64,000 bases of DNA from NCBI RefSeq assembly GCF_009914755.1, contig NC_060936.1. One strand, 5' to 3'. The notes below the pieces were generated by a model that saw nothing but the letters and a program-made list of their open reading frames with translations, did not search any database and was not told the DNA's origin. The position numbers and the translations under genes are program-made. Within the stretch, counting starts at the first letter, position 1, and every line of letters starts with the position of its first letter. The DNA is from the human T2T-CHM13v2.0 reference genome, Homo sapiens. This document shows positions 4,050 through 55,661 of the stretch, piece after piece.

Positions 4050-7000
4050 CTTTGATCCATTTTGAGTTAATTTTTGTTTATGATGTGATGCAGTTGTGCT
4101 ACTTAATTACTTTGCATGTGACTATCTAGTTGTCTTAGCACCATTTGTCGAAAATACTATTCTTTTCCCCATTGAATGATCTATATGCCCTTGTTGAAAA
4201 TCAATTGAGCATAAACTGATTGATATAAAAGTTTATTTCTGGTCTTACAATCCTGTCTCAATGACATATAGATCAATTTTTATGCTAGTCCATATAGTCT
4301 TGATTACTTCAGTTTTGTAGTAACTTGTAGATTTTGAAATCAGGAAGTGTAAGTCCTCCAAATTTGGTTTCCATTTTCCTGATTTTTTTTCACTATTCTG
4401 GGTCCCTTAAATTTCCATATAAATTTTAGAATCAGCTTCTCAATTTCTGCAAATAGGTCCATTGGGATTTTGATAAATTCTACATTAAACCTGTGGATCA
4501 ATTTGGAGAATACTGGCATACCAACCACAAAGTCAGTCTATGAACAAGGATATCTCTGTTTTTCAAGGTTTTCTTTAATTTCTTTCAACAATCTTTTGTA
4601 GTTTTCGAATATAAACTTTGCACATCTTATGTTAAATTAATTCCTAAATATTTTTTCCTCTTTGATGCTATTGTAAGTGGGATTTTTCTCATTTCACTTT
4701 CAGTTTGTTCACTGCTACTGTAAAGAAACACAATCCATTACTGTATATTAATATTGTATCCTGCAATGTTGCTAAATTTATTTCTAATAATTTTTAGATT
4801 TCTAGAATTTTCTAAATAAAAGATCATGCCATATGCAAATAGAGATAATGTTGCTCTTTCTTTCCAATACAGAAGCCTTTTAGCTGATGATGTTGCAACA
4901 ATTTCCCTGTCTTGACTGCAAATGACAAGAATGAACAACCTTGTCTTCTTCCCAATCTTAGGGGTAAAGCTTTCAGTATTTCATCAAGTATGCTATCAGC
5001 TGTGGATTTTTCATATATATTCTTTATCAGGTTGAAGAAGTTTTCTTCTGTTTCTAGCTTGTGGAATATTTTTTATAACGTATGTGTGTCAAATTTTTAT
5101 CAACTGTTTTTTATTCATCTGTTAAGATGATCATGTGTCTTTTGCTCTTTATTATATTATTGTGGGTATATTATTATTATTATTATTATTACAGAAATTG
5201 ATTTTGGGAAGTTAAACCAACCTTGTTTCTGAGTTAATCTCACTTAGTTATGGAATATAATCCCATTTTAAAGCTGTCAGATTTAGTGTAATCGAATTTT
5301 GTTGAGTATTTTTCAGTGTCTATATTCATAGGAAAAGTTTGGTCTGCAGTTTTCGTCTGATGTCTTAGAACATCTCATAGACATGAGTTGGAAAGTGTTG
5401 CATCATCTTTTTTTTTTTTTGGAAGAATTTATGACAAATTAGTACTAATTTTTCTTTAAATGTTGGTTACAATTCAGTATTGGAGCCATCTGAGCCCAGA
5501 TTTTAATTGTGGCAATGTTTTCAAATACCCAATCAATCTCTTTATTCCTATAGATGTATTCAATTTTTTTCTTTTTTTCTAGAGTCAGTGATGGTAGTTT
5601 GTGTCTTTCTAGAAATTTGTCTATTTTATATAAGTTATCTAATTTGTTGAAATATAGTTGTCCACATTATTCCCTTTTAATTCTTTTTATTTTCATAATA
5701 TTGGGAGTGATGTCTCATTTTTTATTTCTGATTTTAGTAATTTCAACCTATCTCTTTTTTTCTTGGTCAGTCAAGTTAAAGATTTTTAATTTTCCTGATT
5801 TTATCAAATAACCAACTTTTGATTTCCCTGATTTTCTCTATTGGTTTTCTTTATTCATATTCTCTAGTTCATTAATTCCTGCTTTAATTTTTATTATGTG
5901 CTTCATTCTGTTTGCTTTAGGTTTAATGTGCTTTTCTTTTTCCAGTGTCTTAAGGTATAAGTCTAGGTTATCTATTCGAGATTTTTAAAAAATATATAGG
6001 CATTTACAACTTATATTCTTCTAAGCACTGCTTTACTTCATGTCATGAGTTTTGGTATGCTATGTTTTACTTTTACTAAACACAAAGTATTGGCTGATTA
6101 CCCTTGTAATTTTCTTGTGATTTCTTGGTTATTTACATGTGTGCTATTTAATTTCCATATATTTGTAAATGTCTCAATTTTTTTCTCTCAACTTTTAAAA
6201 CCATTATATTCAGAAGACATACACAGCACAATTTCAATCATTTTAAATTTATTCAGGCTTACCTTATCACCTAGAATGTGATCTATACTGGAAAATGTTT
6301 CTTGTGCACTAGAGAAAAATGTGTATTTTACAATTGTTAAATGGAGTGTTTTGCTGATGTCTGTTAGGTCTAGTTGCTTTACAGTTGTTCGAGTCTTTTA
6401 TTTTCTTGTTTATAATTGTTTGCATGGTATATATTTTCCATTCTTTTATTTTCAGCTTGTTTGGGCTATTGAATTTAAAAAGTGTTTTCTGTAGACAGCA
6501 TATAGTTTTATCTTTAATTTTATTTTCACAATCTCTGCCTTTTGATTGAATTTTTTACCCATTCACATTTAATATAATTATTGATATAGTTGGATTTAGG
6601 TACACTATTTTACTTTGTTTTCTATATGTTTCATGTTCTGCTGTTTCTCTTTCTTTTACACTGATGAATATTTTCTAGTATAATATTAAATTCCTTTAAT
6701 TCTTCATTTTTATAATATTTTCTTAGGTTGCTCTATGGCTTACTATATGCTTCTTAACATCAGAATCTATTTCACTTTTATACTAATTTAACATCAGTGA
6801 GATAGATATAAGAGGTTACTCCTATATAGCTCTATGCCCTCTTCCTCCTTTCTGTGCTACTATTGTAACATATATTACATTTCTATACATGACAAACCCA
6901 GTAATACATTGTTATAATTATTACTTAAGATAATTGTATGTTTCTTAAAGGAGCTAAGAGGGGAAAAAGATCAAGTAGGTATTTATAGTTTGTTCTATAA

Positions 7001-37467: not shown

Positions 37468-39199
37468 CTATTACAGCCCTATGAGGATGATTACTCCTGT
37501 AATGAAGAATGATGGGAAATTTGTCTCCAGGGCTGGAAGTAGGCCTGAAAATTCTGTAAGTACTTTGTGTTGGCCAAAGCAGGCTCACATTGTGTGTCTT
37601 TCATCTTTGATGCTTACTAGAGCACTAACATATTAGTCAGAGAAGAAAGACTTTCTTCTATTTTGTAATCCTGTGACACCACTTTAAGTACAGTGGCTGG
37701 TAGCAACTCCTTGGTGACCCTTCAGAATTATGAGAATCGGGCAAAGTTGATGGCTGCTACCCGTCAGAGCAGGAGTCCAGTTTATAACCGTGAGTTGATC
37801 CTGTGCCTCTCCCCTGATGAGGATTTGTGTTTCTGCCAGAAGCTTTGCTCCAGGTACTGATGAAACCAAAGTTTTGGAAATAGAAAGTGCTTCCTGAGAG
37901 ATGACTAGCTTTGCAACTACTATTCAAAGAATAAGTAGAGTGTGTTTTAGAAGATGAGTATTTCCCACAAATGACAGAATGTTGGACTTAAAAGGTTCTG
38001 TGGCAGTTTGGGAGGTGACAGTTGATAGTTGTGAAAGTTGTTGTCTCTGAGATTCGTGAAACACGCCGCTTTTTAGAATGCCTCTGAAAGAACAAAGAAG
38101 TCACTGGCACTCGACTATAATATGCTAAAAAGTTTCTGGTTCCAACAGCACACAGCCAGCATCAGGTGTTTTCTTTTTTGATAAATGCAGGCGGGGTGTG
38201 ATGTGGGAGAACATTTTGTGTTTTCCTGTGAGAAAAAGATAGTAGAAAAGAAAGTAAACACTTTGAAATGGCAAATCTCTTTCTTCCTCCCTCCCCTCTG
38301 AATCCAGTAATCAAAAAACTGTGAACTTTTTTTAAATTTTATTTTTTTTCACTGTCAGTATTCAATATAACTGTGAACTTTTTAAAGGAAGATGTTTTAT
38401 TCTTTGAGAACCCCCTTACTAGTTAGATACCTCTAAGTGAGATATAGTTGTTTAATTTTTCCAAGGGCTAAGTCAGTAACATGCTGGACAGTTGAGTACA
38501 TGCAGATAAGACAAAGAAATGAGACCTGGGCCTAGTCCAAGCCCATAAAGGATGGCAGTAAAGTCAAAATTCCCCTACAACTTCAGGCTAGGAACTACTA
38601 CATTCAATGAGATGGAAAGGCTACTATTCCTAAATATTTAGTATTTATTTTATTTAGTCATTGTCCATCTTATCACTTACCCTCAAAATATTCTTTTGAG
38701 CAGTAAGTTAAGGCTGTTTTTAGCTCGCAGTTGATTGACTACCATTACTCAAGCCATTTGGGCTGTTGGAGCTCACCTTTAATTAAACAAGATTCTTATG
38801 AAAAACTTGAGAATGAAATCTGGTTGTAGGTATTCCTGTACTTTTGGATTAGTCTAAGGCTGAAATTTCGCACTCACTCCGAAAAGAACATCAGAATCAT
38901 TTCGACCATGCTATGCTGCACAATAAGGAGTAGTTCAAACGACAACTTTTTTTGATCCCAGGTGTTTTATTATAGGGTTTTCTGATAGTCTTACCGGAAA
39001 GGAAGTTTTCATTCTGCTTGGGAATCTGGGGATGTCTCTAGCCATTTCTAAACTTCTACAGTGCTTCCCCCACGAACTAAAGATAACAGGCAAGCAGTTT
39101 CCATTGGAACTGTGTTAAATCGACATCTGAAATGTTCATTGCTTATAATTTGATCTTATTTAATTTCCCAAAAAATCATTAGTTACTAGGTATTGCTAA

Positions 39200-39790
39200 G
39201 TACCCACGTTCGGGAAACGCATCTTTTTTTTTTTTTTTTCACGGTTATTAAAACCGAGGGTGGGGGGCGGAGGACGCACGTGGGAACCCACCAGGCGCCT
39301 CAGCTTCTGCACTACAACTCCCAGAAGGCGCCGCGGCCAGGAAGCCGCTTCTGGACGGGCGTTCCCGCCCCTCGCTGGGCTTGGTAGTTGGGGCGCAGCC
39401 GCGGTGGCTGGGCGCGGAGTGTGCGTGGCCTGAGCCGTGCGGGTGACTGCTTCAGGGCTTCTCCGCGACTGGACCGGGCGCCGCTCGAAAGCACGCCCTC
39501 CATTCGCACTGCTTGTTGGGCTCATCATGAAGCGCTTGGGCTCCGTGCAGCGGAAAATGCCGTGTGTGTTTGTGACGGAGGTGAAAGAGGAGCCTTCCTC
39601 CAAAAGGGAGCATCAGGTACGGAGGAGCGCCGGGCAGGCTTGGCGGCCCGCGTGGGCTCCTCCCCGCGGCGCTGGCTCAGTGCGAACCCGGCGAGGGCGG
39701 CTGGGCGCTTTAGAACTGCCCTGCAGGCCAGGAACCTCTGTAGGTTTCCCTGGGGAGGTCTGGGGTGGGAGTTCCGTACGCCCTGAGCTC
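39200..39790. promoter_or_regulatory. CpG-island promoter of RLIG1 with GC box (about 39263-39271), E-box CACGTG (39277-39282) and ZNF143/THAP11-type motif ACTACAACTCCCAGAAGGC (39311-39329)
   Basis: The only GC- and CpG-dense segment in the window; spans exon 1; motifs read directly; no TATA box seen. Confidence 0.88.
39527..39616 (+). CDS. RLIG1: RLIG1 exon 1 (aa 1-30)
   Basis: atcATGaag start; CAG|gtacgg donor, phase 0. Confidence 0.95.
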
Positions 39791-42700
39791 CAGGTTCTTG
39801 TACTTTTCTTAGTTGTGAGGGAGGGAATTTGCGAAAGAATTTTCCTTATCAGGAGATTCAAACTTGTCCTCGCAAGGAAATGGATAACTCACATCCACAG
39901 CATGTCCCTTCCTTTTCAGGTCAGCACCTTTTGGGGAAACCCCCTAATCAGGTAATTGCCACAGTCCAAGCTTTACTACTTTTCAAGAGTGCAGTAAGAA
40001 AGGGTGGATATTAGAAGACTTGCTTTACCTGTTCTGTCCGAACCAGTGGCGGTGTTGACAGTAGCCTAATTAGGTCACTGAAGTTCACACCTCATATTAC
40101 CAGTAATTACTTAATTTATTCTAACTTTGGTGTTCTCAAGGTTTTCTGTTGCAGCAACGTGTTTTCCATAGTGTGCCCTCGGTAAATGCTAGTGAGTAAC
40201 CTATATTTGGGTAATTTTTTCATATTGTACTATAAAACGTTGTAGTCTTTGATCAGTAGAATCCCCAGTGATTAGTTGGGTGCTTCCCAACTTTGCTGAT
40301 TTCAAACAAAACCAACATGTCCATTGGAAATCCACCTCACTTGAGTTTCATCATTGGCACTGGCTTTCTCGTCTTCTGGACTAAAACTTGTTTAAGGCAA
40401 AGATTGCCCTGTTATCTTTAGTCCCAGCTTCTAGGACCTGGCACGTGGTAGGCACTGGATAAATATTTGTTGAATTAAAGAATGAACCCTGGAATCATTT
40501 CATGCCAGTTTTCCATTCACCTTGATGCTTTTTACCTTATAGCATCTGATCTTTTCCTGCTTTCTATTGCTGTCACAGCTGTTACAGTTAATATTTCATG
40601 TCCTGCTCATTGCACCACCTAACTGGTCTTACTTGCCACTCAGACTGATCATCACCATGTTCTTTCCTCGTCAGAATACCACAGTTATTACTCAATGTTT
40701 GTAGCAGTAATTGGCTTTTTTTTTTAGCTGTAACAAATGTAATCCATATGAAACATTATCATCTGTTTTAGTATTTCACTCTACTGTGATTTTCAACTTC
40801 GTATGTTTGAGGGGAGTAGTTTGTGAAAGTATTCTCCACCAGGGAAAATAAGCAGCCCCTTCTCTTACCTCTCTGCAGTTAAGAACAGCTTACAGTATCG
40901 TTTATAGCATAGCATCCACATTCTTAATTATAATTCAGGGCCTCCCACTAATGAGGCTCAATCTACCTTCCATCGTCCTTAAAGTGGATTCTGTTTTAAC
41001 CATCTATTTCATCCTGTGAACATATCAACCACAATCCTGTCTCATATTTTTGCTCAGACTGTTCACTCTGGATCACCTCTAGAGTGTTTTTAATTTTTCA
41101 AGTCAGTTCTTCTCCATAAAATCTTATCAATTTAGCCATTTCAGTGATTTCCCCTACCCAGAAATTGTAGAGGGCCACTCAATTGATATTCACTATTTTA
41201 ATACACGTACCTTGTTTTTCCGGTAATAGTCTAAAGCCTTTTATGACAGGTGGAGAAGGAGAACTTTGTGTACCCCTCAGTGTCTCGTGTTGTCCTTTGG
41301 ATATGTCGATAGCAAAGAGCAGATGATTGATTTTTATGGAAGGAATGTTTATACTCATCAGGAGCTCCATGGGGCAGAGTAATCTTCCCCCCCACATAGG
41401 ATCTTTGATAAATTTAGATACACACACACTGCTATTGGACCAGACCCTGTGGCTCTACCACCCTGGGTTAAATTGATATCCTTTGAAACCAGCATCATAA
41501 GTTAGTGAAAACCAGTTGTATTTTTAAAGTACTGAATCCCTACTAGACGATTATATTTTAAAAGTATTGAATCAGTACTAGAAGGGGCTAATTTCTTAGT
41601 TTACCTGTTTGCAATAGTGCATAAGTCTTAAGCTCACACACAGCAGTATGTTTATATTGTACAGTGTTGTTTCACTTTGTAAGATGATGCTACTTCAGAT
41701 ACAGACTATAGAAGTGGCATAAGTCTTTTTCAGAAATGAAAATAAATTATAGATAAAAAGTTAGTAGGAACCCAAGAAACTGCCTTTTCCTCATCCTTGG
41801 TGCCCTTCTTCTTCCTGACAGTAGAAAAACCATAAATTAAATATGTAAACAGCTGACTACTGATAAAGCTGAAAGGGACAAAAAGTGAGTACTCTCAAAG
41901 CAAACAAACTCAAAGGAAAAACAAAAGGCAAGTGATTCTTACTAGTTTTAACGGTGAAAATTGTTAGGGGAAAAACATGAAAAAAACAAAATCAACTTCA
42001 AATCTTGAGTACTCATGGTGCAAAGACATAGAACTAAAATGGTTCTGAAGTATACGGTATAACATCTCTAAGATGGCATAGTGGGCCAGCTTGTGCTATC
42101 AGTGGGGCTGTATTTACAGGAGTGCTAATATGAGGTCTCGTCTAAGAGGTGATGCCAGCGGGTTTTACTCCTTTTTTTATATTCTGCCTGCATAGTCTAG
42201 GACAAGGCCGTTCACAAACTAGATGCTCAAGCTTTGTTGAATGAGTTACCACAAAGATTTTTAGATCAACATAGACTCCTAAATACAACTTTCAAAGTAA
42301 ACAATTCATCAGACTACATGGGGATGTCAGGTAACTGTGAAGAAAACTGTTGTCAAAGTGAAGCCTAACTCAAGAGTCAAGAGATTTGTTTTATAGAGGC
42401 AATTTTTCTTTTGCCATCTTGAACATTTTTTAAGTAAATAAACCATAGCTGATACAGCTCAGAAATTTAAGTTTGTAGTACTGTCATGTCTAATATAAAT
42501 CACTATTAATGGTAGGAAACCATCGGGGTGAACTTTCCTTTCAGGCAGATAATATATTTTCCTAAGAGTATTTGTTGAACTTTATGATGATACATCTGAA
42601 GATTTTTAGGATATAAAACTGAATCAAGGATAGAATAGTTCTGAAAATTAAGATGCTTTTAAAGTCTGTGATCTGTTATGTTTAGACAGAGATGCAAGCT

Positions 42701-44025
42701 CTGTGACAATGAAGGTATACTAATGATAATTGCTTCATGAAAAGGATGAAGATCATTAGTTTTTCAGCCTGTGCTTATAATAGCACTTGTTTATCATGCA
42801 GTTGAGGAGGAAAAACATGAAAAAAGTAAATCCAGAAACCATTTGATTTTGGCTCTTAAAGAAACTTCTTGGTAGCAAATAGAAACTGATGTCAATTATA
42901 TTGAGAAAAATGCACTGAAAAAGAGACAAGAAGTATGCCAAAACGTTCTTTGTGATACATCTGAAGGGTGATGACGTGGGTGATTCATTTATGCCTTTGT
43001 ATATTTCATTTACAAATTTTCTATAATGAGCATCTATTAGCTTTGCAAGGAAAAAAAGGTTAAAAAAGGCAAAAACAAAGTATGAACTATCTTCCGTCTC
43101 TTTTGCCTGCTCCCTGAGAATGTGACCTGAGACAGGAGTACATTACCACATCCTTGCTAAGACTCCTTATGAACCAAGTCTTAATTAAAAAACAAGTTTT
43201 GTAAATCACAAAAATGTTTGTGCTTATAAAACAGGGGGAAAGTCTCATGTACTGAAGAGTAGATTGACTCTTGGGAAAACTGAAAATTACAATTGAAAGA
43301 TACTTGTATTGAACTACCAGAAGCACTTATGAAGTTTAAGTTAATTAAGCATACAATCTAGTTTTACTTCACGCAGATCCAGACTCAATGTCTGCCTTGC
43401 ATTCTTCAGACACATCAAGAAACCTTACCTTTTGTTTTTTTCCTCAGATATTTACATGGTATTCCTTTGCTTCAAATTTGGTTAAAGGTTGCCTCCTCAA
43501 AGTTTCCCTTTCCACCGTATCCAAAATAGCACCTCATCCCTCTTTCCTTTACCCATTTGTTTTTAGCACTTGCTTGTCATAGCTAACATTATATTATGCA
43601 TTGTGCTTCTTTTGTCTCCCTCATTAAAATGCAAGTTTCACCCAAGGCAGGTACTTTTTTGTTCACCTCTGTATTTCCAGTGCTGAAGACAATGCTTAAT
43701 CTTAGGCATTTAGTAAATAATTGCAGGTATATGATTAAATATACTGAATGCCTTTGCTAGGGATGCAGCATTGCAAAGAACAAAGGTGGATAAAGAAACG
43801 TAAATAACTACAGAATTGTGTAGAAAATCAGGTGTTGCTGTGATAGTACAGAAGGGAGCAAACAATTCGGAACTTCACAGAATAAATATTTTTAAATCAT
43901 TCTGAAAGATGAACTGGAGATCATTCCTTAAAACTAATGAAATTAAGAAGATTTCAGGTGAGCATGTGTGCAAAGACATAGAGGCTATCTATCTTAAACC
44001 GGTTTTCTCTCTCTCTTTTTTTAAG

Positions 44026-44143
44026 CCATTTAAAGTTTTGGCAACTGAAACTGTAAGTCACAAGGCATTAGATGCAGATATATACAGTGCAATTCCAACA
44101 GAAAAAGTGGATGGAACATGTTGTTATGTTACTACCTATAAAG
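44026..44143 (+). CDS. RLIG1: RLIG1 exon 2 (aa 31-69); motif I EKVDG, with the K57 codon at 44104-44106
   Basis: Polypyrimidine tract + aag acceptor; G|gtaaaa donor. Confidence 0.95.
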
Positions 44144-44829
44144 GTAAAATAAAACTATAATATTTACTACAAATATTACTTATTTTTCTTAATCACTTTA
44201 CAGTCTATCTGAAATGAGGCATTTGCTCTTCATAAACACTTGGAAACCTAAGTATAGTAGCAAAACAAAAAGGTCACAATTGTTATAGTTCACTTATGTT
44301 ACTGTATTTTCTTCCTGGTGGAAAAAAGAAAGGTAACTAAAATATTTACTTAATACCCTTAAGGGCTCAGGCAGTATGGTGCTTGACATATATTATCTCC
44401 AATTTGTACAAGTAGCCTCTCCATTTCACAGACAATAAAAATGAGGTTTAGCAAACTTAAATAATTTGTCCAAGACCCAATAGTGACTGAATGGCTGAAC
44501 TGGCAATGGGACCTATGTTCGTGTGACCCTTAAGCTTGTTCTTCCTGCACTGATTCCAGGGGCTTTATTCCTCTTGGCAGTGTCTCTAATTAATTTCACT
44601 TTAATGTAGTTTAAAAGGTAGAAATGCAAATAGAAATTGTCAGTCATTTTAAGAAGAAATGTACGGAAAAGAGATTTTTTTTTTGCAATTATTTTTGGAC
44701 GGTGAGATTACCTCTCACTTCCAGAAAAAAATAGCATCTGGACACATTCCTGGGGCATTAAATGGACATCTGGACACATTCCTTGTATCAGGAAATTTAT
44801 TCTGAAATGCAGTAAAATAACTGGGCTAA

Positions 44830-45520
44830 AGCATACATAATATTTGCCATCTTAACCATTTTTAAGTATGCAGTTCAGTGGCATTAAGTATGTTTACATT
44901 GTTGTGCTACTATCATCACCTTCCATCTCAAGAATTGTTTTCATTTTATAAAACTGAAATGCTACCCATGAAACAACTCCTTATTCTCCCACCACCAGCC
45001 CCTTGTAACCAGCATTCTCCTGTCTCTATGAATTTGACTACTCTAGGTATTTCATATAAGTAGAATCATACAGTGTTTATTTTTTGTGACTGGCTTATTT
45101 CACTTAGCATAATGTCCTTAAGGTTCATTCATGTTGGTTGCATGTATCAGAATTTTATTCCTTTTTAAAGCTGAGTAATATTCCATTGCATGTATCTAGC
45201 ACATCTTGTTTATCCAGTCAACCATTGCTGGACAGTTGGGTTGCTTTCATCTTTTGACTATTGCGAATAATGCCACTGTAAACAGGCATGAACAGATATC
45301 TGAGGCTGTGCTTCCACAGAAGTGGAATTACTGGATGATATGGAAATTCTGATTTTTTGAGGAGCCACTATACTGTTTTGCATAGTGGCTGCAGACATTT
45401 ACCTTTCTACCAACAGTGCACAAAGGTTCCAGTTTTTCAATTTCCTCACCAGCACTTATTTTCTGCTTTTTTCTGTTTGGATTTTTGTTTTTGTTTTTGG
45501 ATAGTAGCCATTCTAATGGA
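44830..45520 (-). mobile_element. L1MB-like 3' end
   Basis: catcttaaccatttttaagt...tgactggcttatttcacttagcataatgtcc. Confidence 0.7.
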
Positions 45521-46701
45521 TGTAAATAAATTGCATTTTTTATGTTTACTGGTAAAAAAGAAACAAAAGGTCCATTGAACCAGAAACGATAATACAGTTT
45601 TAATCTGGTTCTTCATATTATTTATCTGGATAGCTAATAAGTAGCACAGAATATTTGGACCACTGTGCAGCAGTTTCTTTATAAACCTTGGATTTGTATA
45701 CTTGAGAAAACTGTAAAAGATTTTTTAGACTTTGATGTCTATTAAGAAACTATAGTGTGTATCATTATGCGTGAGGACGGCAAACTGGGTTAGAATTTAA
45801 CTGCTAAACTCAAGTCACAGAACCCAAAGTGACAATGCTTACAAATCCACATTTATTACTACTAAAGAATTACTACTAAATTATTACTACTAAGGCATTA
45901 AAAGTAAAGATGTGTATTATAGCCAAGGACTGTCTCACAGTAAGGAGTATGGAGAGGCCAAGTAAAAGCTACTATTGTTCCCTGCTTTAGAGCCTTGGCA
46001 GGACACATTTTCTTAGATCAGGAACCACTTATGTGTGCAGGCAAACAGCTTGGAACCAGGGAATGCAAAATGGACTCACAGCTGGAGATTTTTATATTTT
46101 TGCTGGTCACGTAGGTAGGCAGCTGATGCTCAGCTTCAACAGCAGAGCCCTCCAGGGTTCTCAGACCAAGCTATCAGTCTCACTCCTACCAATAAAGAAT
46201 ACTAGCACAGTGCCCTGCAACTCCTCAGATCCATGAGTACAAATCAACATTATTAGTATTTTCATGCCTTGATCAGGGGTCAGTGCCATGCAGAACAGCT
46301 CAGCCTGATTCCAGATGTGTCAGAATTAACCCTTACAGCACAGTGTTATGTTTGGGGGGAAGGGGTGGGGTAAATACAGTTATCTGGTTATGTTTCCATT
46401 TTGAAGAGGTAGCTTCAGTTGTCCATAAATGCTGCTAACTCATACAATATGACTATGCAGTGTCCTTATAAAAAAGATCATATATTTACTTTTTGTCTCA
46501 TCCCCCTCATTCTTTAACCAGAGAAATAAGTCTTCTCATAGCATCAGGTACTGCTAGGAGGTATATATTCTTAGACTCCATATTTCCCTTTGTCTTCTTT
46601 GAGAAATTAGCCTCCTGTTTGTTGACAAACTGTATTCTGAAATGTCTTTCAAGATAAGTTTTGTTTGCATCATACTTTTCCTTTTGTTATTACTTTTTTA
46701 G

Positions 46702-46797
46702 ATCAGCCATACCTTTGGGCTCGACTAGATAGAAAACCCAACAAACAAGCTGAAAAAAGATTTAAAAATTTTCTACATTCAAAAGAAAACCCAAAAG
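46702..46797 (+). CDS. RLIG1: RLIG1 exon 3 ([13 protein letters not shown]...ENPK)
   Basis: ttttttag acceptor; G|gttagt donor; phase 1-1. Confidence 0.95.
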
Positions 46798-47475
46798 GTT
46801 AGTTTTTTTTTAACTTTTCATGTTTAAATAGCTGAAATTTGTGGCATATTTATTGCTGTGGTATTTCTATACATTATATCCTTCTGTGTAATTTAAGCAA
46901 TTTAGGAAAACTATAATTGAATACTTTTATATATAAAAGGATATTATTGAAAAATATTGTAAAATATTTTTGTAATATTTGTCACTTCTTTATAGTATGA
47001 GTCTATTAAAACATACAAATTACTGCATATTGAAATGAGTGACATTTTGTGTAAGAGACAAATACGTAATTTTATAAATCAAGTACAAATCTCAGGAAAT
47101 TAATATTTTTAATTATTAAAATGCTTTTAAATATCTGTAGTAGATACTCATTGTATATCTATGCATTCATGTATTTATGTTTATATTTGTATTCATAGTA
47201 TATTAAAAATTCATAAATCTAATACTTAATGGAATATGATTACTTTAGTTTGACTGTTAAATACTGTATACAAATGGCGTATATGAAATTGAATATTTAA
47301 ATTGTTAGTACCCTAATCTTAAGTACAGTCATGTTGTGGTGATAATGAATGGAGAATAATTGTATCACACCTGATATTATGAGGTTTTAGTAGCTGTTCC
47401 CATTTTGAGTCTGTTTAGTATTTTACGTTTTTTAAGTATCACCACATACAATATTATCTTTTTAATATTTTTTAG

Positions 47476-47592
47476 AATTTTTTTGGAACGTTGAGGAGGA
47501 CTTCAAACCAGCTCCGGAGTGCTGGATACCAGCAAAGGAGACAGAACAAATAAATGGGAACCCAGTGCCTGATGAAAATGGACACATTCCTG
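47476..47592 (+). CDS. RLIG1: RLIG1 exon 4 ([12 protein letters not shown]...DENGHIP)
   Basis: ttttttag acceptor; G|gtatca donor; phase 1-1. Confidence 0.95.
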
Positions 47593-47867
47593 GTATCATG
47601 ATATCTCTTCTAGTGCAGTTTTGTGTTTACTAGTAAAATGATCAAAATATCCATTCAATCAGAAATTACAGAATTTTAATCTGGGTCTTCATTAATATGT
47701 ATAGCACAGAATTTCTGAATCAAATTTATGTAAAGTCCTACATACATTTTATATCAAAGATGTTTCATATCAAGAATGTCCTCTTAGGTTTAGAATCTTT
47801 TCTAAGATGGGCATTTTTTACTAGCTGTAGTCTGTGACAATAAAGCGTCAAAAGAGAATAGCCTTGA

Positions 47868-48160
47868 GGCCAGGTGCAGTGGTCACACCTGTAATCCCAG
47901 CACTTTGGGAGGCTGAGGTGGGTGGATTGCTTGAGCCTAGGAGTTTTAAGACTAACCTGGGCAACATGGCAAAACCCTGTCTCTACCAAAAATACAAAAA
48001 ATTAGTTGGGCATGGCATTGTGCGCCTGTAGTCTCAGCTACTCGGGAGACTAATGTGGGAAACACCTAAGCCCCGGAAGTTGAGACTGCAGTGAACCATG
48101 ATCGTGCCACTGCACTCTAGCCTGAGAGTTGGACTGTGACCTTGTCTCAAAAAAACAACA
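47868..48160 (+). mobile_element. AluJ-like element
   Basis: ggccaggtgcagtgg...cctgtaatcccagcactttgggagg, both arms present. Confidence 0.85.
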
Positions 48161-48592
48161 AAAGAAGAGGGAATAGCTTCCAAGTTCTTGTCAGGATAGA
48201 TGAGATGATCTAGTCTGAAATGAGATTTCAAGAAGTGGCTATACCTTTAGATTAGGGATGGGAAAATTTTGCGAAGGTATGCTGAATAGGAAGATATCCC
48301 AGATTAAGGTTATAGGTTCTCAACCGGCATGTCTTGAGTGCCCATTATGTGCAAAGTCCTCTTAGTTTCTGGTAATACAAAAATGAAGGTCAGAACCCTT
48401 GTCCTCAATGATCTTTAATTAGACATTGGGAGAAATTAACCAATAATAGTATGATTTAAGAACTAACAGGAATGAATACATCAGGTGCCACTGGAGAAAA
48501 GAGGAATTCCTCATTCAGCTTGTGGTTAGTGGAGGCTCCCAAGAGGAGTAGACATCTGTACTGAAGCTTAAGGACCAGGAAGTCAGCTGACA

Positions 48593-48667
48593 AGGAAGAG
48601 GGAAGATCAGCTTAGGCAAACTCCCAGGAAGAGGGAATATCAGCTTAGGCAAACTCCCAGGAAGAGG
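48593..48667. repeat. 33-nt tandem duplication, about 2.3 copies
   Basis: aggaagagggaa(g/t)atcagcttaggcaaactccc at 48593 and 48626. Confidence 0.9.
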
Positions 48668-49458
48668 AGAGGGCATGGGGTATTTTGAATATTTTATGTA
48701 ACACTTTATTGCAGCTAGAATGTTCAGGGTATATGACATCATGAAGTGGCTGTAAAAGTTGAGGCTAGAAGTGTGGTGGGCTCAGATCGGAAAGGCCCTT
48801 TTATTCCATCTAAAGGAGTTTGAAGTTTATCCTGAAGATAATGGTTTTTAATCAGTGGTACAGCAAAAGCAAATTTAAGTTTTAGAAATAGAACTATGAT
48901 AAAAGTGGGTTGGATTTCACTGGAGGCTAGGTGACCAGCAAAGAAGTTATTACAGTAATCTAGTGTGAGTAATGAAGGAATTCTGGCAATAAGAATGAGA
49001 AGGGTAATAGCAATAACATTCAATAAACGTGGCATCAGTAAATTGTTCGGTATATATTGGAACATTTTAATAAACTTGGAACACTTAACTGCATTATGTC
49101 CATTGTCCCTGAAGCTTGAGAGAAGGCAGAGAGAAAACTTATTTTATATAAAAAATTTTGAGTGCTGTGTCTTAGAATAATGTTCAGTTCTTAATGAATA
49201 AGGGTGAATTTTCTAGTAAGAGAATGCTAGGTGCTGTGTAGTGAATAATAGGTTAATTCTACAGAATAAAAAATGAACCCTTATGATTTTTTAAAAAGTA
49301 ATAAACTGTTAACTTTCCCACTGAATTTTAAAGTAATATCTCTTTGCGATAGACACCCAGAAAACATGAGAAATTTACAACAAAAATATAAATTACCTGT
49401 AGTGTCAGTCCAAAGAAAAACGATCTAATAACAAATAATTTTCTTCTTTATATGATAG

Positions 49459-49656
49459 GTTGGGTACCAGTAGAGAAAAACAACAAACAGTATTGCTGGC
49501 ATTCCTCTGTAGTTAATTATGAATTTGAAATTGCCCTGGTACTAAAACATCATCCTGATGATTCTGGACTTTTGGAAATTAGTGCAGTGCCACTTTCAGA
49601 TCTCTTAGAACAAACACTGGAACTCATAGGAACAAATATCAATGGAAACCCATATG
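49459..49656 (+). CDS. RLIG1: RLIG1 exon 5 (GWVPVEK...[15 protein letters not shown]), contains E195
   Basis: gatag acceptor; G|gtgagt donor; phase 1-1. Confidence 0.95.
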
Positions 49657-50299
49657 GTGAGTGAAGACTTTTTCTTGTTCAGTTATTGTAACTGACATTT
49701 ATAAAGAGAACTTTCTAGGTCAACTTAAAAAACATACACACACTAAAGAAATGACTAACAAATTTGAGTTAGTTTCCTAGGATTATATCCATTTCTGTTA
49801 ACTTTACATTCACAGAGAAATGAAACCATTTTATTAATCCAAAAGGTTGATTTTTATCCTCATTCTTTCCTGTAATAACATTACACAACTATATATGAAA
49901 AGTAATGACTCAGTTGTAACCCCCTTGCTTTTAAAAATTCAGGTGAGTTGAGTCGATTGATGAAAATGCACTTTTCATGGTTATTATAGCATCAATTTAA
50001 ATAGCCAACGGTATAAAGAATTGGCAATGAATAATACCATGTTAAGTATCAAAATATATATCATGATGAATTGAGTGCAAGTACTGAGAGCACTATGGGT
50101 TACACCTTGCTGACAAGGGGATGGGAAGACAGACCTAAGGATGCTAAAGCTATAATAGGAAAATCCTATATAGAGATCAAAAGAAGACTGCCAGGTGTAA
50201 AGAAGCTAAGATGGTAGTTAGACAAGTTATCAGAGATACAGTGCAGCTGTTTGGCAAACGTTGAAGAATAGTTGAATGTGGCCAGTGCCACACTGGTAC

Positions 50300-50485
50300 C
50301 AAAGGTTGGTAGACTTTTTCTGCCAAATGCCAGAGTAGGTATTTTAAGTTTTGTAGGCCACTCTTCTGAAAGGAGCTACAGACAGTACTTACATGAGTGG
50401 GTGCGGCTGTGTTCATGGAAAACTATTTACAAAAAAAGGTATCTGTCCAGACTTGACCTGCAGGTCATAGTTTGCTGAACCGTGG
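50300..50485. mobile_element. MER58A-like DNA transposon remnant
   Basis: ttttctgccaaatgccagagtaggtattttaagttttgtaggcca...ggctgtgttc...catagtttgctgaacc. Confidence 0.6.
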
Positions 50486-50684
50486 TGGAGAGTACACCAA
50501 GGTGGAATTTAGAGTTATTGGAATAAGGTGCCAGTGCACTGGGTTATATTCTTTTTAAGGAAACCAACCAGCCTTTCTACCTTTATTCCTAAGTGTTTCA
50601 AAAGACTTTATTTGAAGAGGTACGTTTTCTAGTTCTGAAAGTTCCTTTAAATGAATATGGCTAATGGCAAATTTTCCCACTTAG

Positions 50685-50854
50685 GGTTAGGGAGCAAGAA
50701 ACATCCATTACATCTTCTTATACCACATGGAGCATTTCAAATAAGAAATCTACCTTCATTGAAGCACAATGATCTCCTGTCCTGGTTTGAAGATTGCAAA
50801 GAGGGTAAAATTGAAGGAATAGTGTGGCATTGCAGTGATGGCTGTTTAATAAAG
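50685..50854 (+). CDS. RLIG1: RLIG1 exon 6 (GLGSKKHP...[16 protein letters not shown]), contains E250 and K263
   Basis: ttttcccacttag acceptor; AAG|gtaatg donor; phase 1-0. Confidence 0.95.
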
Positions 50855-52111
50855 GTAATGGCAAAAATAGCTCCGGTGGGGTTATGTCATCTTATATTCC
50901 TACAATAGAGTAGAAGTGACACTAAAATTCTCTCTACAAATGGCAGCAATTCTTATTTGCAGTAAAGAAATTTAATTTTCTCATCCCATGTACCACCATT
51001 TTTTAAGAGGTAAAACAGTGCTTCCCAGTGTGTATTGTGTGGGGCATCGATCATAACAGGTGTGCTTCAGAATTAAAGTGATAACTATATATCCCCTGCG
51101 TGGAAATTCATGTTGCACAGTAGTGCTCTCAGAGACATCTTGTACTAACTTAACTCAGCATCTCCCAGACTTGAGTGTAGAATCTGTTGAGTAAAAAGAG
51201 TGCCAAGGTAGCAGTTGATATATACAGAATGAATTATCTTATACTTTGTTCCCTTTCTGTCTCCTGGACTTGTCTGTTTGATTTCTCACAGGTACCTGAA
51301 ATTCATAATATTCAAAACTGGGCCTAGTTGTAACTCTCTGAGTCCACATAATTCACTGAAGTAAAAACTTGGATATTAATTTTAACCCCTCTTTTCATTA
51401 CTTCATACATCCAGTTATCAATTCCTAACAGTTCTAATCTATGTACTTCTTCCCAACTGTTAATTTTAATTTAAGCCAAGATTCATGCTTTAACTATCAT
51501 ATCACCCTCCAAAAATAGTATCTTTCAGTTTTAGCCCTGTCCTCTCCATTCTTCACAAATGAATGAGCATATTACTTTCCTGCATAAATCTGTTCAGTTA
51601 CATTAAACATTCATGATCTGGCCCCTACTTAATTTCCCAGAACTGCTCTCCACCTCTGCCCCCGCAAACACACTCACACTGTGTTTGCTGTAACCATATT
51701 TACATGATTGCAATTAGAGCAAAAAACTCCATTCTATCATATAACATTCCTTTCAATTAGAATGCCTCCTTGCCCACATTTTTCAGGTAGCTAGTCTGTA
51801 CTCAGCAACAGGCTCTATGATTCATAACATTTTATGGAGCCCCTGATAATGTTCCTGGCATGTTTCCAGGTGCTGGACATACACAGTCAACAAAACAAGG
51901 TGTCTGCCTTCATGAAGCTCACATTCTAATGGGGAAGATAGACAATAAACAAATATGTAATATGTCAGGAGAAGACCAGCTATAAAAAAAAAAACAGTAA
52001 GATAAAGTGGAGTCTTACCCAGTACCTGGCAGACAGTGGGCACTCAAATATTTCTAAGTGAATGAAGATAGTATCTGTATGCTAAAGCTAATACCTTTTT
52101 TCTCTTTCCAG

Positions 52112-52300
52112 GTCCATCGCCATCATCTTGGCTTATGCTGGCCAATTCCAGATACTTACATGAATTCAAGACCAGTTATTATCAACATGAACCTGAACAA
52201 ATGTGACTCTGCCTTTGATATTAAGTGTTTGTTTAATCATTTTTTAAAAATAGATAATCAGAAATTTGTTAGACTCAAAGATATAATATTTGATGTATAA
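52112..52300 (+). CDS. RLIG1: RLIG1 exon 7 coding part ([11 protein letters not shown]...DIIFDV*)
   Basis: ttttttctctttccag acceptor; TAA at 52298-52300. Confidence 0.95.
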
Positions 52301-52915
52301 AATGCAAATAAAATTAGTTTATCATTATATTCTAATCTTGAATATTCTACCATATTTAAAAATATCTCAAGGTTTCTGTTCATTATGAAACATCAATATG
52401 TTTTCTACCATTTGTGAAGAAATGAATTTTCCAGTTTCAAGTACCTATTCAAAATTTTATTAAAAACCAGCAAATTAATTTTAATCTCTAGCCATAAAAA
52501 CATAAGTAATAGTAAGCTCCTAAGCTTGGACAAAGGCTGGATTCTCTTCACTATAACTGAGTGGTAATTTAAAGACAACAATTTAATGTCACTAATTTTC
52601 AAAATTAAATAGTTTAAGCTCAATTTAATTTTGCTAGATATTTAACAAAACATACGGCTCAACCTCATAACCTATATGTGTGTATGTCTACATCTGTGTA
52701 TATATCATAGGATTTGAGAATCTTAACACATGTATAAATAAGTATATATAAACTCCAATTTTAAATCTTAAAATTGCTGAATTTACCCTCATATTCTTTA
52801 AAAAACTTAAAGCATTATGAATGTAGAGAAATTCACCAGAGCTCACTGCCTATTTGATGGCTGTAACAAGTCTTCAAGTATATACTTTTATAATAAGTTG
52901 AAAATTTCATATAAT

Positions 52916-52925
52916 TTTATTTATT
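52916..52925 (-). terminator. CEP290 polyadenylation signal (overlapping AATAAA pair)
   Basis: Plus-strand tttatttatt = minus-strand AATAAATAAA, about 140 nt after the CEP290 stop. Confidence 0.7.
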
Positions 52926-53061
52926 AAGAATTCCAATCTAAGTATAAAGGTACAAGGTAGTGAGAAGGAAATACTACAGTTCGGAGAACTGCTTATTTCC
53001 AAGTATATTTAACTTATAAAGTTAATAAATAGTTAAATGAAACAAAGTTTATAGGTGACCT

Positions 53062-53292
53062 TTAGTAAATGGGGAAATTAACAGGACTTTCTTCTTCATC
53101 TTCAAACTCTTCAGAAGCAGCAACAGGGCTAGTTAATTCAACTCCCAATTGTTCTGAAAGTTTTTTTACCTTCTCTTCTAAGAGAATATTCTTCTTCACT
53201 TCTTCCTTGTAATTATACTTAAGATCTTCAATTTCTTCAAAAAATGAAGGATCAAAATTTTCCAGTTCTTTTTTCAGCTTCTTTATTTCCTC
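53062..53292 (-). CDS. CEP290: CEP290 terminal exon (54): EEIKKLKKELENFDPSFFEEIEDLKYNY...PVNFPIY*
   Basis: Recognised CEP290 C-terminus; ccattag acceptor; TAA at 53062-53064. Confidence 0.96.
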   Translation of the reverse strand, partial: EEIKKLKKELENFDPSFFEEIEDLKYNYKEEVKKNILLEEKVKKLSEQLGVELTSPVAASEEFEDEEESPVNFPIY

Positions 53293-54015
53293 CTAATGGA
53301 AACATTATCTTTAAAAGTTGCATATAGGAAATATACATATTTTACGTTTGAACAAGGAGATTTAATTGTAAATATGAAAGCCAAAGTATTCCTGAATGGT
53401 CAAATACAGCAATAAAGGCAGAAGAATTAAGATTTTTCTTTGTTCCATTGTACAGTGTAAATAACTAAGTTGTTAACTGTCAAGTCCAGTTATGTATTCT
53501 GTAAGTTGTGTTCTAGTCTTTGACTAAAATTTATCATCTCTTATAATGGGACTTAATCTTTCTCTAAAAGCATATAAGAGCTTGTCAATAGAGCAATCAA
53601 TCAAAAAGATTTTGTGATTCATAACATTGAAGTTAGTCTGGTTAAGAGTTTTGGTTTAGACTTCATTTATATTTTCCTTACTAATATCTAATATTTAATG
53701 AATAATGATCAATTTTTTATAAAGTTATTAATATGATCAGGGAAACCTTTGGGACTTCTGACAGGCATCTGGTGAAGAGACAATTCAAGCCTTAGTGACT
53801 ATTTAGAATAGCCAGTGATCACTAGCTAATTCTCATATCCATGCCTTTTTGTCCTGTTTACAGTCTTAAAAGAGGTAAAACAGCAAATATTTTTTTAAGG
53901 GAACTATAACCTTAGGATTCCTGAAAAGAATTTCAAAAAAAAAATAAAGACACTGTTGCCAATGTGACCCAAAACTTAAGAACATACTAATGGCATATAT
54001 TTGTTACAATTAAAA

Positions 54016-54021
54016 AATAAA
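54016..54021 (+). terminator. Candidate distal RLIG1 polyadenylation signal
   Basis: AATAAA preceded by ATTAAA and followed by a GT/T-rich tract (tgttgagtctgaattttttgtt). Confidence 0.5.
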
Positions 54022-54231
54022 TTTACTACTTAATCCTATGTTGAGTCTGAATTTTTTGTTAACTCTAATATGTTAGGAATAGTCAGATGAACATAATTAA
54101 CTTTGCAATATAAAGGTCAAATATAAGATGTTATTACTGAATTTTTTAGGATACGTAGTTAAAGATGGTAATGAAAATAGTTTTCAACAGCTGTTTTCAC
54201 AAAACGATACTAAAATATAATTAAATATTAC

Positions 54232-55569: not shown

Positions 55570-55661
55570 ATCTATGGCCATATGACCCTTAATGCACATG
55601 CACCTGATCTCTGATCTCAGAAGCTAAGCACTGTTGGGCCTGGTTAGTATATGGATGGAAG
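55570..55661 (+). pseudogene. 5S rRNA pseudogene, 3'-truncated (RNA5SP-type)
   Basis: tctatggccatatgaccctt...ctgatctcagaagctaagca..gttgggcctggttagta..tggatgg aligns to 5S rRNA nt about 1-90 with CpG decay. Confidence 0.9.

Follow-up and report, generated by a model that had tools for sequence, protein, structure and literature searches.

The window analysed here is a stretch of 64,000 nucleotides of human DNA, and its region at 39527-52300 is almost certainly the gene RLIG1 (formerly C12orf29). Its product is a single-domain covalent nucleotidyltransferase of 325 amino acids (aa) that joins RNA 5'-phosphate and 2',3'-diol ends. RLIG1 is named for RNA ligase activity in RefSeq and in Pfam. When spliced, the seven coding parts of the region give 978 nucleotides (nt), that is, 325 codons followed by TAA, in an intact frame, and all six introns begin with GT and end with AG. 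The spliced product and the five motifs named for it by a first-pass annotation are both in place. The coding exons, with the match of each to the Pfam family PF17720, are as follows.

39527-39616, + strand: coding exon 1, residues 1-30, with the invariant K10 (39554-39556); PF17720 positions 1-30, E 1.5e-11
44026-44143, + strand: coding exon 2, residues 31-69 and one base, with motif I (TEK57VD59G60T); PF17720 positions 31-69, E 3e-16
46702-46797, + strand: coding exon 3, residues 71-101, with motif Ia (R77) and the start of the animal-specific insert; PF17720 positions 71-101, E 1.3e-12
47476-47592, + strand: coding exon 4, residues 103-140, with the end of the insert, the invariant W118 and the GH138 segment; PF17720 positions 103-140, E 1.1e-15
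49459-49656, + strand: coding exon 5, residues 142-206, with motif III (TLE195LIG198); PF17720 positions 142-206, E 8.7e-34
50685-50854, + strand: coding exon 6, residues 208-263, with motifs IIIa, IV and V; PF17720 positions 208-263, E 3.9e-27
52112-52300, + strand: coding exon 7, residues 264-325 and TAA, with the conserved HRHHLGL-W273 segment followed by the animal-specific tail; PF17720 positions 264-324, E 5.6e-19

The motifs of the covalent nucleotidyltransferases, I, Ia (R77), III (E195), IIIa (H221), IV (E250) and V (K263), occur in this order. Motif I, TEKVDGT, occupies residues 55-61. The first-pass annotation had correctly recognized it, but the range 44104-44115 that it gave for the adenylated lysine is that of the KxDG core, K57-V-D59-G60; the codon of K57 alone lies at 44104-44106. 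WAR spans residues 75-77 (R77 codon, 46722-46724) and TLELIG residues 193-198 (E195 codon, 49620-49622). H221-G222, which form motif IIIa, are encoded at 50726-50731. KIEGIVW follows at residues 248-254 (E250 codon, 50813-50815; E250-G251, 50813-50818), and LIKVH at residues 261-265, where the K263 codon (50852-50854) is the final codon of exon 6. The protein has 56 residues N-terminal to K57 and 62 residues C-terminal to K263. Neither motif IIIa nor K10 was in the motif list of the first-pass annotation.

Family membership and fold

Each exon translation was compared with Pfam on its own, and matches were reported at E<=1. All seven matched PF17720, 'RNA ligase 1' (the RLIG1 family, formerly DUF5565), and did so colinearly, tiling positions 1-324 of the 324-position profile. 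The scores ranged from 44.2 to 117.3 bits (E 1.5e-11 to 8.7e-34), above the curated cut-off of 25 bits, a pattern far beyond chance. A second match of exon 7, to PF21202 (SLX1_C), was sub-threshold (E 0.054). When exon 5 was used as a query, 304 longer proteins were retrieved; the matches listed (at least 120) all carry PF17720, and the named ones among them are vertebrate RLIG1 or C12orf29.

With a profile of 12 vertebrate sequences, a search of 1.84 billion proteins retrieved 666 representatives (E<=0.001). Across 44 diverse aligned members, K10, K57, D59, G60, T61, W118, G141, E195, G198, H221, G222, E250, G251 and K263 are invariant, while R77, D79, K81, H265, H268, W273 and others are conserved in at least 90%. 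By this measure, all five residues picked by the first-pass annotation are under the strongest constraint. The catalytic residues are also invariant in a second alignment of 20 rows: 18 forms from viral contigs, a Yasminevirus-like form of metagenomic origin and P0012, the orthologue from a bat. The lysine K10 lies in the first beta-strand; it is present in 44/44 diverse members and in 20/20 rows of the second alignment, and it may contact the ATP phosphates. It is unmentioned in the main text, supplements not included, of the two papers that characterized the enzyme (PMC9931718, PMC11494293).

Searching the PDB with the 44-sequence profile returned 9c6l/9c6m, 'RNA ligase1', the RLIG1 of Yasminevirus (E 2.1e-59, profile positions 3-278), and no significant match outside these two entries. 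A profile was required for this, as exon 5 alone gave no match to PDB sequences at E<=1. The profile alignment pairs human K57 with Yasminevirus K73, R77 with R89, E195 with E174, H221 with H195, E250 with E240 and K263 with K253, once a shift of one residue in the deposited chain is taken into account; motif roles are those given in PMC11494293. Thus R77 aligns with the arginine through which the Yasminevirus enzyme binds the ribose 3'-OH, and K57-V-D59-G60, invariant in 44/44 members, aligns with the adenylated lysine of 9c6l. The superfamily motifs assigned by the first-pass annotation agree with these crystal-structure roles.

The fold was modelled with AlphaFold2 on the bat orthologue (92% identical), together with the 44-sequence alignment, and this model stands in for the human protein. 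The two proteins are 92.3% identical, and none of the 25 differences over 325 residues is at a catalytic residue. The model has a predicted local distance difference test score (pLDDT) of 93.4 and a predicted template modelling score (pTM) of 0.91, and it adopts the nucleotidyltransferase fold, in which two antiparallel sheets clamp the nucleotide. Foldseek matched it in the PDB to 9c6l/9c6m only (9c6m, E 7.5e-19); the next match, at E 0.058, was unrelated, and no classical ligase was found at E<=0.001. The relation to other ligases is visible only by VIA-align 2, a search independent of Foldseek, with these scores:

9c6l (219 residues, 1.9 A): 23.8
NgrRnl, 5cot: 7.1
T4 Rnl1: 5.8
T4 Rnl2: 5.8
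REL1: 5.3
Trl1: 5.2
LIG3: 5.1

The alignments to classical ligases are confined to the adenylyltransferase part of each target. Within model residues 280-325 there is only one 4-residue strand (285-288) and one 7-residue helix (303-309). Because 62 residues follow motif V and only these two short elements are modelled in them, RLIG1 lacks an oligonucleotide-binding (OB) domain or any other appended RNA-binding domain, as the first-pass annotation had argued from the short C-terminus. The C-terminal OB fold with motif VI that marks DNA ligases and capping enzymes was found neither in the RLIG1 sequence nor in the bat model, and no OB domain has been seen in RLIG1 in the literature.

RLIG1 can be compared with several named systems. 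The locus encodes the published human RLIG1/C12orf29 (PMC9931718, PMC11494293), with the same gene, length, and K57, D59, R77, E195, E250 and K263; nothing differs. The RLIG1 of Yasminevirus sp. GU-2018 (9c6l, wild type; 9c6m, K73M) has 277 aa, lacks the animal insert (~82-113) and the C-terminal tail, and shows a broader in vitro site preference in the anticodon loop (PMC11494293). Relative to the ~185-aa bacterial and phage relatives, animal RLIG1 adds this insert (~residues 82-113) and a tail (~residues 280-325). In NgrRnl of Naegleria gruberi (Rnl5), an OB-like domain stands at the N-terminus and duplex nicks are sealed; RLIG1 lacks this domain and left nicks unsealed (PMC9931718). The two have no significant sequence match in the profile search of the PDB. 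T4 Rnl1 (PDB 9do4, 5tt6) has a C-terminal tRNA-binding domain, which RLIG1 lacks, and a partner healing enzyme, Pnkp. RTCB, like RLIG1, joins RNA ends in human cells, but it is the opposite of RLIG1 in that it takes a 3'-phosphate or cyclic phosphate and a 5'-OH, uses GTP and forms a histidine-GMP intermediate; its fold is also unrelated (PMC11494293, PMC13247085).

These comparisons bear on whether RLIG1 is a family of its own. That it belongs instead to an established family, Rnl1, Rnl2, Rnl3 or Rnl5, is very improbable. At E<=1 no exon matches PF09511, the Rnl1 family, or PF09414, the Rnl2-type family, and no Rnl1 sequence in the PDB was matched; profile and Foldseek searches alike are significant only for the Yasminevirus entries. 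RLIG1 has no counterpart of the C-terminal tRNA-binding domain of Rnl1, the C-terminal domain of Rnl2 or the N-terminal OB-like domain of Rnl5: 5cot aligns at chain positions 143-339 only, against model residues 7-278. The structural alignments, which are what could be said for membership, span only the nucleotidyltransferase parts of their targets, and RLIG1 ends 62 residues past motif V. That RLIG1 might be a DNA ligase, or else an mRNA guanylyltransferase, is harder still to credit, to the point of being nearly inconceivable. Both share the superfamily motifs, but no OB domain follows motif V, and in published assays nicked DNA was left unsealed, ATP was preferred and the activity was RNA-specific (PMC9931718, PMC11494293).

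Transcript ends and retrocopies

The coding exons are flanked by a promoter and by untranslated regions (UTRs):

39200-39799, no strand: CpG-island promoter, head-to-head with the long non-coding RNA gene LOC107984542 (gene positions from annotation)
39414-39526: RLIG1 5' UTR, 113 nt, without an upstream ATG
52301-54038, + strand: RLIG1 3' UTR (span from annotation)

Within 39200-39799 the GC content is 0.61-0.685 and the CpG observed/expected ratio 0.69-0.98, whereas the flanks have 0.33-0.43 and 0.19-0.71, respectively; over 39000-39999 as a whole the GC content is 0.546. At the other end, the 3' UTR of RLIG1 runs tail-to-tail into the 3' end of CEP290 over 1145 bases (52894-54038; spans from annotation), so that the last CEP290 exon (52894-53292; coding, 53062-53292) lies antisense within the RLIG1 3' UTR. 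AATAAA is found at 54016, 22 bases ahead of the annotated RLIG1 end, and on the minus strand at 52916, where the plus strand reads TTTATT; this second signal lies 22 bases within the end of CEP290. An Rfam scan of the whole window at the gathering threshold gave no matches; the annotated 5S rRNA pseudogene RNA5SP364 (55578-55655) falls below the gathering score.

The human genome contains one intact, intron-bearing RLIG1 locus and three intronless copies that are ridden with stop codons, namely processed pseudogenes:

Contig 8, 89606677-89610162: retrocopy L081, ~78-92% identical to the mRNA, exon 1 joined to exon 3
Contig 3, 112115354-112119037: retrocopy L082, ~84-90% identical to the mRNA, exon 2 kept
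Contig 5, 57947719-57951159: retrocopy L083, ~76-83% identical to the mRNA, exon 1 joined to exon 3

In the copies on contigs 8 and 5, mRNA position 203 is joined to position 320, and the 118-nt exon 2, which encodes K57, is missing. That two of the three retrocopies lack this exon suggests that an exon-2-skipped RLIG1 transcript was common in the germ line. A link between these copies and circularization was dropped, since the paper on porcine circ-C12orf29 leaves the circularized exons unspecified.

Relatives in bacteria, phages and viruses

Species-representative genomes and IMG/VR viral contigs were searched for relatives, with a phage-type alignment used for the bacterial search. In the genomes, 336 RLIG1-like stretches were confirmed out of 535 candidates. 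Among the genomes that carry them are named Planctomycetota, Chloroflexota, Deinococcus, Moraxella, Rhodococcus, Massilia, Chitinophagaceae and two archaeal metagenome-assembled genomes. The viral contigs yielded 168 candidates, of which 148 were confirmed, and some of these contigs are tailed phages, as capsid, portal, terminase and prohead-protease genes are among the 125 neighbours scanned. The bacterial and viral homologues mostly have 176-245 aa, and we refer to such short forms as mini-RLIG1. Homologues of ~185 aa are common across bacteria and tailed phages. Thirty-five of 77 viral open reading frames (ORFs) were scanned; all 35 match PF17720, 34 of them above its cut-off. The mini forms retain the equivalents of K10, K57, D59, G60, R77, G141, E195, G198, H221, E250, G251 and K263 in the 20-row alignment, and their profile matches 9c6l (E 1.6e-26).

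A 77-row tree from a quick maximum-likelihood analysis, which is unrooted and does not give the direction of descent, splits the family in two, with an approximate likelihood ratio test support (SH-aLRT) of 100 on both sides. Bacterial and phage sequences, interleaved, make up one side (37 rows). The other (40 rows) includes a vertebrate clade (support 99) along with invertebrates, protist transcripts and Yasminevirus-like forms. From these sequences, human RLIG1 belongs to a separate eukaryote/giant-virus branch and, given the two-way split, is not nested among phage genes. The description of the enzyme in the first-pass annotation as phage/prokaryote-style holds for its mechanism and its fold, and a large bacterial and phage branch does exist, but the human protein sits on the other branch and is no sequence-level member of Rnl1, Rnl2, Rnl3 or Rnl5. 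The mini-RLIG1 proteins of viral contig L039 and of the Segniliparus rugosus chromosome (L162) are identical in the tree alignment, and from this identity the two are probably the same prophage.

Next, the genes around the prokaryotic and phage homologues were considered. Kinase and phosphatase families were sought by a Pfam scan at E<=1e-6 in 135 bacterial flanking genes and in 125 of the 266 phage neighbours. None of the 135 genes flanking bacterial mini-RLIG1 matched a polynucleotide kinase or phosphatase family, and only one of the 125 phage neighbours scanned did so, in L015. Nor did BLASTP clustering reveal a widely shared neighbour: the largest cluster covered 5/77 phage loci and 5/80 bacterial loci, and the bacterial neighbour clusters are limited to close relatives. 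In L015, a 172-kb viral contig, the RLIG1 homologue (6001-6747) has as neighbours a PheRS-alpha-like gene and a gene for a 402-aa kinase-ligase fusion (L015:4235-8600). This fusion combines a P-loop kinase-like domain (AAA_33/KTI12) with an RNA ligase domain of PF09414, and the gene content of L015 suggests a two-ligase RNA-repair cluster. In one bacterial locus (L127), a T4-Rnl1-type ligase gene adjoins mini-RLIG1.

tRNA genes are present in 12/80 bacterial and 6/80 viral loci; there is no matched background for these counts, hence no enrichment is claimed. Published work reports tRNA genes in >20% of 390 neighbourhoods (PMC10364804). In Albitalea terrae (L125:2864-5639), the mini-RLIG1 gene (5001-5531) lies among 18 arrayed tRNA genes, and an HNH endonuclease gene comes directly after. 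In L153:3762-4724 and L020:5866-7902, three or six tRNA genes stand just downstream of the ligase.

In Moraxella, all four loci have a gene for a PIN-domain protein (130-136 aa) with an upstream ORF of 70-74 aa, a VapBC-like pair, adjoining mini-RLIG1:

L105:4143-5561, PIN gene and mini-RLIG1
L108:4119-5561, PIN gene and mini-RLIG1
L112:4950-6249, PIN gene and mini-RLIG1
L118:4665-5925, PIN gene and mini-RLIG1

The PIN gene is upstream of the ligase in two loci and downstream in two, and the setting runs from an argH-like gene to iron-trafficking genes. All four belong to a single genus and may go back to one event, so they are only a lead.

Chemistry, cellular role and alternatives

The activity of RLIG1, its key residues and the crystal structure of a homologue are already in print; that the enzyme had been characterized was also stated by the first-pass annotation. 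K57A abolishes auto-AMPylation (Yuan et al. 2023, PMC9931718), the opposite of the retained activity that the first-pass annotation had named as grounds for doubting the assignment. In the same paper, mutation of D59, E195, E250 or K263 leaves the enzyme inactive, whereas R77L retains ~12% activity; ligation is specific to single-stranded RNA, with DNA and nicked duplexes left unsealed; and cyclic-phosphate ends become ligatable in the presence of ANGEL2. Hu et al. 2024 (PMC11494293) located AMP on K57 by tandem mass spectrometry and found adenylation lost in K57M and E195A. There the enzyme required a 5'-phosphate and a 2',3'-diol, and nicked DNA, 2'-phosphate ends and cyclic-phosphate ends were not ligated. 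Their paper also reports ligation of the tRNA anticodon loop, tRNA changes in knockout mice, the Yasminevirus crystal structures and the activity of bacterial, phage and viral homologues.

The reaction proceeds in three classical steps. In the first, the alpha-phosphate of ATP is attacked by K57 (motif I, KxDG), which yields enzyme-(lysyl-N)-AMP. The ribose is held by R77 (Ia), E195 (III) and H221 (IIIa), while D59, E195, E250 (IV) and K263 (V) are placed for contacts with Mg2+ and phosphate. In the second step, AMP is moved to the RNA 5'-phosphate, giving AppRNA. Attack by the 3'-OH then releases AMP and seals the strand. The chemistry and the residue roles have been shown in the published work; the present analysis confirms them for sequence, family and fold only. 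No result in this analysis contradicts the ligase assignment.

Proposed substrates of RLIG1 in the literature are tRNA, 28S rRNA, ribosomes and Ap2N caps. Stumpf et al. 2026 found that RLIG1 associates with the ribosome, that 5'-phosphate fragments accumulate in knockouts, and that ANGEL2 and CLP1 are enriched with active RLIG1 (PMC13244148); neural phenotypes have been described in zebrafish (bioRxiv preprint 2025.12.01.691575). The first-pass annotation had called substrates and end-healing partners open questions. This is true in part, as they are not settled, but tRNA, 28S rRNA/ribosome and Ap2N-RNA have each been proposed, and the two candidate healing enzymes co-enrich. Judging from published knockout phenotypes, the job of RLIG1 in the cell is likely the resealing of broken tRNA and rRNA under oxidative stress, although the matter is unsettled. 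Several published observations bear on this role: mouse and zebrafish knockouts are viable, tRNA exons are not sealed by RLIG1 in HeLa/HEK cells (review PMC13247085), and RLIG1, which does form Ap2N caps, accounts for only ~20% of the cellular Ap2N-RNA pool (PMC13598233).

If RLIG1 were chiefly a non-canonical capping enzyme that halts after the second step, its main product would be 5'-adenylylated RNA (AppN, the 'Ap2N cap'), which the enzyme is indeed reported to form. We consider this improbable. The modest share of the pool credited to RLIG1 speaks against it, as does a stress-induced rise in Ap2N-RNA that is unaltered in the knockout (PMC13598233). Complete ligation is efficient in vitro (PMC9931718, PMC11494293), and the build-up of 5'-phosphate-ended fragments in knockout cells fits a sealing role (PMC13244148).

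PIN nucleases leave 5'-phosphate and 3'-OH ends. One reading, which we rate as unlikely, is that RLIG1-family ligases are stand-alone sealers for nucleases that leave such ends (metal-dependent, PIN/VapC-type tRNA and rRNA nucleases) or for oxidative scission, and not for the cyclic-phosphate nucleases countered by T4 Pnkp-Rnl1. Healing by ANGEL2/CLP1 would then be auxiliary in human cells. The leads to this reading are the retained catalytic residues, the scarcity of kinase and phosphatase neighbours, the tRNA arrays (L125, L153, L020) and the Moraxella PIN genes.

The observation made by the first-pass annotation is thus correct and not new. The K57, E195, E250 and K263 mutants and the fold comparison that it proposed have already been published (PMC9931718, PMC11494293); as a discovery, the finding adds nothing new, despite the biological importance of the enzyme. 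Added here are an exon-level map, the family-wide invariance of K10 and H221, and the genomic surroundings.

RLIG1 is the sole classical 5'-phosphate/3'-OH RNA ligase known in vertebrates, and any RNA-repair pathway in humans that is separate from RTCB is thus anchored by it. The prokaryotic and phage branch of the family, made up of stand-alone genes that now and then lie within tRNA arrays or beside PIN toxin genes, offers a tractable system in which the in vivo substrates, and the choice between sealing and 5'-adenylylation, can be addressed.

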